Shown here: positions 13-4,118 of the stretch, in pieces
Layout: each line of letters begins with the position of its first letter
Position numbering within the stretch: position 1 is the first letter of the stretch
IMG/VR virus record: IMGVR_UViG_3300029828_000115
Direction: 5' to 3' (one strand)
Length of the DNA: 4,196 nt
From: a virus
Taxonomy: Duplodnaviria; Heunggongvirae; Uroviricota; Caudoviricetes
Program-made: the position numbers and the translations under genes
Notes under the pieces: generated by a model
Seen by the model: the letters and a program-made list of their open reading frames with translations, nothing else
Told to the model about the DNA's origin: nothing
Databases searched by the model: none

Positions 13-34
13 AAAAAACCTTCACTGCGGAAGG
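13..34 (-). terminator. Intrinsic terminator for the small wHTH gene: hairpin CCTTC-N6-GAAGG (19-34) followed on the minus strand by U6 (18-13), overlapping the gene's stop codon
   Basis: Inverted repeat and adjacent A-run read directly on the + strand, giving stem plus U-tract on the minus-strand RNA. The stem is only 5 bp. Confidence 0.45.
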
Positions 35-219
35 CGTCTGTAACAACCGAACTGATAATCTGCCAGACCCGCCATAACAAGCTGGGTCAGTATTAACTGG
101 CAACGTTCGCGTGAAAGGTAAGTATTCTGCGCAATTTCCCCGACGGTCGCCGGTTCGGTGACGCTTAATTCATTAAACACCACTCTGGCAGTTTCGGTCA
201 TATCCTGCTGTTTTAGCAT
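22..219 (-). CDS. Small (65 aa) putative winged-helix DNA-binding protein, MLKQQDMTETARVVFNELS...; the track ORF 22..306 begins at an upstream GTG that I do not favour
   Basis: Open frame with ATG at 219-217 preceded by AGGGA about 7 nt upstream. The core TVGEIAQNTYLSRERCQLILTQLVMAGL has the spacing of an HTH/winged-helix recognition unit, reminiscent of small PapI/FaeA-like regulators. Has its own terminator at the stop. Family assignment is by eye only. Confidence 0.45.
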   Translation of the reverse strand: MLKQQDMTETARVVFNELSVTEPATVGEIAQNTYLSRERCQLILTQLVMAGLADYQFGCYRRLPQ

Positions 220-342
220 GTCTTTTTCCCTTTTCTGGTTAACGTGACATACCAATAACTCTTGTCGAAAAAGCCAGCAAGCTGAAAGACCCGTATTCGC
301 AACCACCAGCGCGTTTAACGTCCTGTGCCGTTTTTAGGGCAC

Positions 343-365
343 AAAAAAACCCGCTCAGTGGCGGG
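343..365 (-). terminator. Strong intrinsic terminator on the minus strand: CCCGC-N6-GCGGG (350-365) followed by U7 (349-343); the same hairpin is followed by ATCTTTT on the + strand, so weakly bidirectional
   Basis: GC-rich 5-bp stem and 7-nt A-run read directly. Sits downstream (minus sense) of the toxin gene and candidate sRNA. Confidence 0.6.
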
Positions 366-387
366 ATCTTTTGATAAAAACGACAAA

Positions 388-408
388 GGCACCATTAAGG
401 TGCCTTTT
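388..408 (+). terminator. Second hairpin GGCACC-ATTAA-GGTGCC followed by TTTT on the + strand (also T-rich on the minus side); possible bidirectional terminator or structural element
   Basis: Perfect 6-bp inverted repeat at 388-393/399-404 with T-run 405-408. No + strand gene upstream in this window to terminate, so its role is uncertain. Confidence 0.35.
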
Positions 409-496
409 ACACAGGGGCAGCAGGCTTGTCATCACCTCATCGCTACTCCTGGCTTCCTGTTCGGAAGTCTCACAAGTCCCATCAGGGTACAGCGAC

Positions 497-525
497 AGTA
501 TCAGCCAACACACTATGTGTGTCAA
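497..525 (-). promoter_or_regulatory. Sigma70-like promoter on the minus strand: -35 TTGACA (525-520), 17-bp spacer, -10 GATACT (502-497)
   Basis: Consensus -35 hexamer and a -10 carrying the critical A2 and T6, at ideal spacing. Points away from the toxin gene toward the hairpin/terminator region. Confidence 0.4.
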
Positions 526-2207: not shown

Positions 2208-3266
2208 TCATGCTTTCCACTTCAGGACACCCGAATTTCTCGCGTGCATTAAAAAACGAATCAGCAACAACAGCTGGCTGCCGTGTTTTTCTTCAAAATC
2301 TTTTACCCCGGCGTGCAGTTCGTTATGACATTTACGGCACAGCGGAATAACAAACAAATCATCAGCCTTTGTTCCCATCCCTCCCAGTCCATGACCAATG
2401 ATGTGATGCGGATCATCTGCCTGATTGCCACACGTCACGCATTTCTGCGTTTTTACCCAGCGCGTGTATACGGGCATCTCTTCCCGTTGTGGTTTCTGAC
2501 GCTGGAGATACTGAGTCGGAGACTCCGGATCAACGGCAATGCTGACCACCGTCTTTTCCTGTGGTGGGTTCTGTTGCTGGTGGACGTGAGGCGGTAACGC
2601 AATATTATTTGTGCGCTGCTTCAGCATGCTGGTGGCGGTCGGTTCTCCCGGTATGATGTCGCTTTCGCGGTACACTGAGCGGATTTTTTCCGCACGTAAC
2701 CCCAGAGAACGACGTAATACTACCTCCGGTAGTACGTCCGCCACCTGATTGCAGACAGCCCACCAGGATAATTCAGCCAGCGATAATTCCCGCTCCTGCG
2801 CACCGCTTATTGCGTGACGGATGACGTCAATCATCCATGCTGTCAGGTTTTGTTGAGCAAGTTGCTCAAGTGATTCTGAGGTCTGGTCACGCAGCTGGTT
2901 GTCGCAGTGCCAGCACAACACCATCGCGCCGGTGCCGTAACGATGTATGACGGTTTCGCTGTGGTGATAGTCACCATGAGGCCACTGGCAGGATTTAACA
3001 TGACGCAGGAGCCAGTCAGACAGTGCACCAGCGCCGCCGGCAGCACGAATCACCCGTTCGTCGCTGAAAAATGGCAGTAATGATTTATCTTCCGCCAGCG
3101 GCTGGCGAACGGCAGGAACAACTCCGGACGGCAGACCACGCATGCTTTTCGGTTCCGGCTCCACCAGCACTCGAGGGTTATGAAATACCTGCATGGATTC
3201 ACGGCCCGGCTTTAGCACCACCAGCCCAAGTTCCGGTACCGGAACAGGTCGAAGCAATACCCGCAC
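2208..3266 (-). CDS. ydfU: DUF968-family prophage protein (YdfU-like) with C-terminal Cys/His zinc-binding, HNH/DUF1364-like motif; 352 aa, GTG start
   Basis: Long ORF with C-terminal CVTCG...PHHI...GTK..D...PLCRKCHNELH, resembling small phage nuclease-like (YbcO/DUF1364-type) zinc motifs. GTG start 3266-3264 preceded by GGAGG. Stop abuts the rusA start (TGAATG). Symbol assigned from family and synteny memory of the Qin prophage, not from verified identity. Confidence 0.7.
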   Translation of the reverse strand: MRVLLRPVPVPELGLVVLKPGRESMQVFHNPRVLVEPEPKSMRGLPSGVVPAVRQPLAEDKSLLPFFSDERVIRAAGGAGALSDWLLRHVKSCQWPHGDYHHSETVIHRYGTGAMVLCWHCDNQLRDQTSESLEQLAQQNLTAWMIDVIRHAISGAQERELSLAELSWWAVCNQVADVLPEVVLRRSLGLRAEKIRSVYRESDIIPGEPTATSMLKQRTNNIALPPHVHQQQNPPQEKTVVSIAVDPESPTQYLQRQKPQREEMPVYTRWVKTQKCVTCGNQADDPHHIIGHGLGGMGTKADDLFVIPLCRKCHNELHAGVKDFEEKHGSQLLLLIRFLMHARNSGVLKWKA

Positions 3267-4030: not shown

Positions 4031-4055
4031 AAAATAAAAAACCCGCCGAAGCGGG
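4031..4055 (-). terminator. Intrinsic terminator at the end of the hok mRNA: CCCGC-UUCG-GCGGG followed by UUUUUUAUUUU on the minus strand
   Basis: GC stem 4042-4055 with tetraloop and adjacent A-run 4031-4041 on the + strand. Confidence 0.65.
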
Positions 4056-4096
4056 TTAAGTGCGGGTGCGTTGAGGATGCCTGACACATCAGAGGT

Positions 4097-4118
4097 GGCG
4101 AGGGATTTCTCCCTCGCC
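4097..4118 (-). other. Perfect 9-bp stem-loop (GGCGAGGGA-TTTC-TCCCTCGCC) in the hok 3' UTR, starting 9 nt after the stop
   Basis: Inverted repeat read directly. hok-family mRNAs are known to carry structured 3' ends involved in fold-back inhibition and stability. Confidence 0.5.

Follow-up and report, generated by a model that had tools for sequence, protein, structure and literature searches.

A toxin gene that has no protein antitoxin gene at its side raises the question of what, if anything, takes the antitoxin's place. Such a gene, of the PemK/MazF family, is present in a 4,196-nt stretch of viral DNA (Caudoviricetes, IMG/VR record IMGVR_UViG_3300029828_000115), hereafter called the window, to which all positions refer unless they follow a locus number (L). 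This DNA comes from an E. coli lambdoid prophage in which every gene lies on the minus strand, and a hairpin-dense region is found in it between the toxin gene and a small TrmB-like open reading frame (ORF). We put at about 60 % the probability that a small RNA (sRNA) of ~115 nt (490 to 376) from this region and the MazF-fold toxin form a two-gene cargo module in the lambdoid late operon, in which the RNA neutralises the toxin.

The toxin and its RNA neighbour

The predicted 133-amino-acid toxin has PF02452 (PemK_toxin) as its sole Pfam match (E 9.6e-14) and carries the RefSeq label PemK/MazF family toxin; the protein is of the YifN type. No match to it was found in PADLOC or NCBIfam. Sequence similarity to the solved MazF proteins was marginal (E 0.016). 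The AlphaFold2 model (predicted local distance difference test, pLDDT, 91) gave MazF of S. aureus, M. tuberculosis and B. subtilis as the top Foldseek matches (template modelling, TM, values of 0.67-0.81), and a profile search of PDB sequences aligned the invariant R29 and the PISTT segment (S50-T52) with R29 and T52 of MazF. The predicted fold is that of MazF, and the catalytic Arg and Ser/Thr positions are present. The family is large, with 822 clusters at 50 % identity (E ≤ 1e-10), and its members occur in Gamma-, Alpha- and Deltaproteobacteria, in other phyla and in many prophages. No neighbouring antitoxin gene was present in the RefSeq annotation or the gene calls of the window and related loci, nor was there a conserved ORF upstream on the same strand, the largest clusters of such ORFs covering 4, 4 and 3 of 131 unique loci.

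Linkage of the RNA to the toxin was assessed in 80 metagenomic and 80 viral toxin-centred loci, fetched by protein similarity alone with a 38-sequence toxin alignment as the query. A covariance model (R1), built from ten gapless sequences and a hand-drawn structure, matched in 72 of the metagenomic and 64 of the viral loci, nearly always on the toxin strand and just downstream of the gene. Where at least 200 nt of 3' flank were available (154 loci), the RNA was found on the same strand in 130 cases, at a median distance of 51 nt past the toxin stop, and a second covariance model (R2) together with inspection recovered divergent or relocated copies in most of the remaining loci. Overall, the RNA stood beside the toxin in about 85-95 % of the 154 loci, which come from distant bacteria and phages. 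Other layouts exist: in L204, L207, L215 and L216 (~1355-1461) the RNA precedes the toxin on its strand, and in L102, L106 and L145 it is encoded on the other strand, in divergent or convergent orientation. These loci argue against a need for co-transcription as a 3' untranslated region (UTR). On the sequences compared, the RNA is a near-obligate neighbour of the toxin family.

The hosts of the module include E. coli, Enterobacter, Klebsiella, Xenorhabdus, Pseudomonas and Geobacter. In prophages of Enterobacter, Klebsiella and Xenorhabdus the 133-amino-acid gene sits between the antiterminator gene Q and the lysis genes, and a TTGACx-17-(T)AATACT promoter and the RNA, with compensatory differences in its hairpins, lie within tens of nucleotides of the solo toxin gene. 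Three unrelated Pfam families of Q (PF03589, PF06530 and PF06323) are found upstream of the module. Homologs with 50-55 % identity, also solo and accompanied by the RNA, are present on a Pseudomonas chromosome, on an integrase-linked metagenomic contig and in Geobacter sulfurreducens, in Pseudomonas and Geobacter outside phages. In all three the gene that follows the RNA is convergent, and the RNA therefore cannot be a 5' leader there. One partial match resulted from a scan of genome contigs with the single toxin protein, and the cassette had no BLAST match in the phage collection.

Transcription unit and fold of the RNA

The promoter-like site TTGACA-17-GATACT on the minus strand (525-497) has 10 of 12 consensus matches and was the top-scoring site of its kind in the whole window. 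When 108 unique upstream sequences of family members were aligned on the start of the model, the -35 TTG was found at -34 to -32 from the RNA start (T in 75, T in 78 and G in 63 sequences) and the -10 at -11 to -6 (A in 80, T in 69, A in 77 and T in 79), with a spacer of 17 nt. From the fixed position of the -10, transcription is predicted to start with the first G that is paired in helix P1, G490 in the window. R2 matched 491-409 with 78.6 bits (E 4e-13), and a GC-rich hairpin occupied the position of terminator 1 in most of the ~115 unique members. A read-through transcript would end at 343 and have a length of ~148 nt; this 148-nt RNA folds at -55.6 kcal/mol, compared with -38.5 ± 3.7 kcal/mol for 200 dinucleotide shuffles, 0 of which were as stable (z = -4.57). 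Only mechanical ORFs of 34-83 amino acids overlap the RNA region, and a 1-nt indel between close relatives in the P2 loop (GAACA or GAAA) rules out a conserved reading frame.

The preliminary description of this DNA, made from its letters alone, had proposed the promoter, stable stem-loops, two terminator-like hairpins of which one is followed by U7, terminator features on both strands, negligible coding capacity, an intergenic location and a transcript starting near 490 and ending near 384 or 343. These proposals agree with the present results. The hairpins are those at 407-385 and 365-350, the palindrome at 350-365 scores as a terminator also on the plus strand, the region lies between the toxin stop and the next gene, and the ends fit the R2 match, the tail of terminator 1 (~376) and terminator 2 (to 343).

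According to the comparative data, the RNA is a member of a structured-RNA family with three helices (P1 to P3), a linker, an apical loop and a terminator (Table 1). Among 66 distinct metagenomic sequences, 94.1 % of the cells were in standard pairs and 20 of the 24 pairs had changes on both sides, and RNAalifold, run on the viral alignment with no structure supplied, led to the same helices, compensation being present in 20 of 22 pairs; each of the two alignments had been fitted to the model, and these counts are hence biased towards it. P1 was paired in 95.8 % of the cells and RNAalifold gave the same helix. P2 was paired in 99.7 % and had both-side changes in four of its five pairs, e.g. 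CUUCC/GGAAG vs CUUUC/GAAAG, and in P3 such changes were found in 10 of 10 lower-stem and 4 of 4 upper-stem pairs. The covariation score was 0.570, compared with 0.193 for shuffled alignments (0 of 500 reached the observed score) and 0.05-0.11 for slid controls. Compensatory changes are visible in gapless MAFFT alignments too, as between L092 and L073 (G-C to C-G, C-G to U-A); RNAalifold on a MAFFT-only alignment of 40 RNAs gave only 6 pairs, because P2, which varies in length, was misaligned.

In 40 diverse sequences the linker columns G20, T21, A23, G24, A25, C26 and T27 were invariant, as was the core A-T-x-A-C-A of the apical loop, the positions flanking it being nearly invariant. A covariance search with the 4227 families of Rfam 15, which include the abiF motif, isrK, C4, pemK and ToxI, gave no match with E ≤ 1 over the RNA, whether for the window or for 17 diverse loci of the family.

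The U-rich 3' tail of the RNA probably pairs with the P3 loop as a pseudoknot. The tail sequence CUUUGUC(A/G)UUUCU is conserved in the family, and the cognate loop-tail duplexes had a mean of -4.78 kcal/mol, compared with -3.79 ± 0.24 kcal/mol for permuted tails (0 of 2000). Several lineages have changed both sides of the pairing (AACAAG/UUGUU, GGCAAG/CUUGCC, ACCAAG/UUGGU, UUGCAA/UUGC and GAUAAGC/GCUUUAUC). A different pseudoknot, between CUUGU of the linker and ACAAG of the loop, was rejected, being broken without compensation in L051 (CCAGU) and L092 (CCGGU); the loop-tail pairing fits better.

Table 1 Positions of the RNA, the toxin gene and neighbouring prophage features in the window
Feature	Positions	Strand	Details
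Structured-RNA region	525-343	minus	between toxin gene and small TrmB-like ORF
-35 hexamer of RNA promoter	520-525	minus	TTGACA; consensus scan
-10 hexamer of RNA promoter	497-502	minus	GATACT, spacer 17 nt; consensus scan
Predicted primary transcript	376-490	minus	~115 nt; core fold, terminator 1 and U-rich tail; predicted ends
P1 hairpin	476-490	minus	G490-C476, U489-A477, C487-G478, C486-G479, C485-G480; loop UGAU; covariance-model structure
Single-stranded linker	468-475	minus	UUGUGAGA, with GU(G/A)AGA(CU) motif
P2 hairpin	453-467	minus	CUUCC-GAACA-GGAAG; length varies across family
P3	412-451	minus	10-bp lower stem 451-442/421-412; 4-bp upper stem 437-434/425-422
P3 internal loop	441-438	minus	GAUG, purine-rich
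P3 apical loop	433-426	minus	GAUGACAA, 8 nt
Intrinsic terminator 1	407-385	minus	AAAGGCACC-TTAAT-GGTGCCTTT, tail GTCGTTTTT; 9-bp stem, loop UUAAU
3' tail	376-386	minus	UUGUCGUUUUU; 386-379 complementary to apical loop 433-426, 8 bp, 2 G.U
Terminator 2	343-365	minus	CCCGC-CACTGA-GCGGG (365-350) and T7/U7; back-up stop
Leader site of toxin mRNA	977-985	minus	GUCAUUAUC, -23 to -15 from AUG; complementary to RNA 436-428 (GGUGAUGAC), 9 bp, 2 G.U
Toxin gene	962-561	minus	PemK/MazF family, 133 amino acids; stop at 561-563
Small TrmB-like ORF	306 or 219 to 22	minus	
pR'-like promoter after Q	1172-1144	minus	TTGCAA-17-TATATT, 9/12 consensus matches
Terminator after Q	1089-1074	minus	
Antiterminator Q gene	1851-1156	minus	PF06323
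RusA gene	2207-1842	minus	
DUF968 gene	3266-2208	minus	

Proposed neutralisation of the toxin and alternative explanations

We infer that the RNA is the antitoxin of the toxin, similar to those of type III toxin-antitoxin (TA) systems but single-copy, located downstream and provided with its own promoter. The preliminary description had already named it as a candidate partner of an apparently antitoxin-less RNase toxin, and the linkage, the covariation and the lack of a conserved protein antitoxin lend support to that proposal. The gene layout should give an excess of RNA over toxin: the RNA would be made constitutively, and the toxin mRNA would probably read through into it. The conserved single-stranded motifs, including the ACA-containing loop, would bind the toxin and keep the RNase inactive, and in Enterobacterales lineages the loop might also pair with the toxin 5' leader just upstream of the ribosome-binding site. 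If transcription were shut off, e.g. by phage infection, the RNA would be lost and the toxin freed, as in ToxIN. Direct binding of the protein seems favoured over other modes, because the linker and the loop are invariant across phyla and the flanking mRNA sequences are variable.

Several observations weigh against neutralisation of the toxin by a dedicated RNA. The covariation counts are biased, the neutralisation itself is read from genomic linkage, and the RNA is without the tandem repeats typical of every characterised type III antitoxin. No RNA was found in five toxin loci with R1, R2 and inspection, the loop-tail pairing is uncompensated in the Xenorhabdus type and in L209/L210/L198, L207 and L208, and the complementarity to the toxin leader is missing or insignificant in most lineages. 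About 15 of the 43 viral contigs obtained in scans with the RNA motif had no toxin gene in the stored locus. These orphan RNAs, which may be remnants or may have a role independent of the toxin, are the chief argument against a function confined to the toxin.

Among the alternatives, antisense control of the type I kind survives best and is nevertheless unlikely. In this case the P3 loop would pair with the toxin leader and block translation or trigger decay, and the protein would stay unbound. In the window the complementary site has 9 bp and the duplex of this type is marginal (~-12 kcal/mol, p about 0.03-0.06). In several Enterobacterales lineages the leader, at ~-25 from the AUG, could pair over 9-16 bp with the upper stem and loop of P3, with up to -22.6 kcal/mol; pairing of UUGUCAUCACC with GGUGAUGACAA gave -16 to -22.6 kcal/mol, and in the L171 type the pair is UGUCAUCG with CGAUGACA, a single compensatory difference from one lineage to another. 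The Enterobacter/Klebsiella and L171-type lineages have the stronger site, with compensation. Among 102 unique loci, the complementarity had p < 0.05 in 24 and p < 0.01 in 17, where ~1 was expected, whereas it was insignificant in 78, the large Pseudomonas group included. Moreover, the loop and linker are invariant across phyla and the leaders are not, which is typical of a protein-binding site, and the toxin is a soluble MazF-fold protein rather than a type I peptide. The data are suggestive of loop pairing with the toxin mRNA leader as a second layer in some lineages, added to the proposed direct binding of the toxin.

It is also quite unlikely that the protein serves the RNA, either as a MazF-like factor that processes or stabilises an sRNA effector, or as a nuclease for which the RNA is a cofactor or specificity element. 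The RNA core is nearly identical where the proteins are 64-78 % identical, and orphan RNAs persist in prophages. In E. coli prophages L003 and L004 the RNA lies directly after Q and the toxin is absent; these copies and that of L044 are located in the late leader, the RNAs of L004 and L044 being fused to lambda-like pR' or tR' sequences. Three other copies (L064 4530-4616, L066 4620-4705 and L067 3726-3812; 74-82 bits) occupy one moron slot at tail/baseplate genes, in which the neighbouring cargo gene varies or is missing between contigs, and that of L066 has kept an intact TTGACT-17-AATACT promoter. In L005 and L059 the RNA is next to other TA pairs: the L005 copy (3031-3110, E. coli A34; ~80 % identical, 65.7 bits) is flanked by a Panacea-domain gene and a ParD/RelE pair, ~550 nt upstream of it carry no annotation, and the locus is devoid of toxin homologs. 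On the other hand, no target complementarity of the RNA is known, MazF catalytic residues and fold are typical of growth-inhibiting RNases, a toxin without an inhibitor would be hard to maintain, and a layout in which the RNA has a strong promoter and the protein depends on a weak one or on read-through is consistent with excess production of an antidote.

We consider it improbable that the structure is a cis-acting 3' UTR, acting only within the toxin mRNA to control how stable it is or how it is processed or translated. The RNA is very likely contained in the toxin mRNA, since no terminator separates it from the toxin stop, the median gap is short and the -35 is sometimes inside the end of the toxin coding sequence. 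The preliminary description had allowed that the region might prove to be merely such a 3' UTR; this reading is opposed by the RNA's own sigma-70 promoter, which is conserved at a fixed distance, by the copies upstream or on the opposite strand, and by the orphans.

Compared with L003, the window carries an extra segment of ~497 bp (515-1011), bounded by CAT, the 3' end of which provides the -35. In loci of the L003 type (L003 3040-3160; also L018, L031 and L039) the RNA and the -10 are kept and the toxin ORF and the -35 are gone together, and these loci are better read as deletions which left the RNA inside a Q-controlled leader. The idea of a hybrid promoter made by insertion of 515-1011 was rejected as an account of its origin, the same promoter and RNA being present in Enterobacter, Klebsiella, Xenorhabdus, Pseudomonas and Geobacter. 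The least probable explanation, that the RNA is merely the distal part of an ordinary 6S-RNA-like pR'-tR' leader under control of Q, with insulating terminators and a promoter that is a by-product of insertion, can point to the same sequence directly downstream of Q in toxin-less E. coli prophages, to the extra segment that supplies the -35 and to terminator 2 as a copy of the terminator after Q, but as a full explanation it fails on this cross-genus conservation, the promoter and RNA being kept with the toxin behind three Q families and outside phages, the -35 and -10 fixed in position in the 108 sequences and the helices covarying.

Prophage context and known systems

The best matches to the window in complete E. 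coli genomes were 95.7 % identical, and none was identical across the whole window. The RNA region is rare in this species, being present in 37 of 5426 complete genomes. In 24 of them it comes after the toxin gene, and in the others, L003 and L004 among them, straight after Q and with the toxin absent. In related genomes the TrmB-like ORF is followed by a DNA methyltransferase gene, tRNAs and lysis genes. This ORF (22-306, minus strand, 65-94 amino acids) has a weak match to the TrmB winged helix (E 0.0065) and is kept after the late terminator, at 84-95 % DNA identity, in phiP27, SfV (orf47) and many Stx2 phages.

Terminator 2 belongs to the late leader of the prophage. It is found in toxin-less prophages and is annotated as a terminator in phage SfV, and it lies in a 27-nt direct repeat (341-367) with 93 % identity to 1065-1091, the terminator just past Q. 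The suggestion that the region insulates the cargo from the neighbouring gene is applicable to this second terminator (365-343) only, and not to the rest of the region. The two repeat copies flank the toxin-RNA module and a 75-nt leader segment, and both are also present in the toxin-less prophage L003. Directly past the Q stop, the unit at 1172-1068 (minus strand) consists of a promoter, a ~70-nt leader and an intrinsic terminator, and is probably the true late promoter of the prophage together with its first terminator; 1068-1139 in this unit gave a weak isrK match (19.5 bits, below the gathering score of 50).

A second isrK-like match (4036-4117, minus strand; 31.2 bits, E 4.6e-4, also below the gathering score of 50) comprises two hairpins and a terminator upstream of the region of an 87-amino-acid ORF, and is possibly another short prophage RNA. 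In the Klebsiella prophage L011, the Rfam sRNA STnc100 was found between Q and the module (2086-2284; 71 bits, above threshold). A perfect 10-bp inverted repeat with a 4-nt spacer (TCGATAATCG / CGATTATCGA, 544-567), adjoined by a ATCGAATTCGAT palindrome, extends across the toxin stop codon; it is not kept in the other genera examined, and may serve as an operator for a protein or form a structure at the 3' end of the mRNA. Two further pairs of inverted repeats, 497-506/943-952 (10 nt) and 470-478/986-994 (9 nt), were attributed to chance, as ~0.4 and 1.5 such pairs, respectively, are expected in 900 nt; the 497-506 arm lies upstream of the start of the RNA transcript.

By function, the module most resembles the type III TA systems and AbiF-RCd22. 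Type III systems (ToxIN, CptIN, TenpIN) consist of an endoribonuclease toxin and an adjacent non-coding RNA, and are found on phages, prophages and mobile elements (PMC3401426, PMC5086642, PMC8860590). The module would share with them, as predicted here, a co-oriented RNA gene that replaces the protein antitoxin, a proposed pseudoknot and a layout favouring an excess of RNA. Known type III antitoxins consist of short repeats in tandem that precede the toxin gene; a terminator lies between the two, and the toxin processes the repeat RNA. The present RNA, in contrast, is single-copy, with three helices and ~115 nt, and lies downstream of the toxin under its own promoter; no repeats were detected in 300-1200 with Tandem Repeats Finder. 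The toxin, with its PF02452 domain, is a MazF/PemK protein and not a ToxN/AbiQ, CptN or TenpN.

For AbiF-RCd22 of a Clostridioides difficile prophage, a toxic protein is reported to be controlled in cis and in trans by a structured RNA through direct RNA-protein interaction, the RNA being likened to a type III antitoxin (PMC12373285). Both cases have a prophage-borne protein of toxic type with an associated conserved structured RNA, as judged here from sequence; the protein there is Abi_2/AbiD/F, unlike the MazF fold here, and RCd22 holds two abiF motifs.

The module shares with type II MazEF/PemIK the toxin fold, PF02452 and the catalytic Arg and Thr/Ser positions, but there is no adjacent MazE/PemI gene, and a conserved RNA gene occupies the position of the partner. 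MazF and PemK are textbook type II toxins that are neutralised by proteins. The toxins of type I systems are small hydrophobic peptides, unlike the soluble 133-amino-acid MazF-fold protein. Lambda 6S RNA and StxS of Stx phages are short pR'-tR' transcripts; like these, the RNA would be a short terminated transcript between Q and the lysis or late genes, made from a constitutive promoter in the late leader, but its promoter and sequence are not tied to the type of Q and occur also outside phages, a separate pR'-like promoter and terminator follow Q in the window (1172-1068), and Rfam has no match to it. The pemK RNA motif of Rfam is a candidate cis-regulatory element of Firmicutes 5' UTRs upstream of pemK-type genes. 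It is likewise a structured RNA candidate linked to PemK-family genes, whereas the present RNA follows the toxin gene, is preceded by a promoter of its own and comes mainly from Proteobacteria. An RNA partner of YifN/PemK-type toxins was not found in the full-text literature searched, nor was anything relevant on solo MazF or on type III systems without repeats, an absence which does not prove that none has been described.

A more far-reaching reading, which we hold only tentatively and at less than even odds, is that the module represents a widespread, undescribed type III-like class, in which a single-copy pseudoknotted sRNA of ~115 nt with its own promoter neutralises a MazF-fold RNase, with a loop of several uses and with orphan decoys. 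The P3 loop could then serve protein contact, the intramolecular pseudoknot and toxin-leader pairing alike, and the orphan RNAs in late leaders and moron slots could be decoys that disarm related toxins of the host or of rival prophages, as pseudo-ToxI does for phage phiTE. On the comparative data, it seems that a whole branch of the MazF/PemK superfamily relies on a conserved structured RNA and not on a protein antitoxin. The RNA family is a ready candidate for Rfam. If the reading is true, the boundary between type II and type III systems would be blurred and RNA antitoxins would be extended to a classic type II toxin superfamily, with a new RNA fold that has invariant protein-facing motifs, and many PemK/MazF genes annotated as orphans in genomes would be explained. 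A compact toxin-RNA pair in the late operon could then have a bearing on superinfection exclusion, abortive infection or lysis timing.

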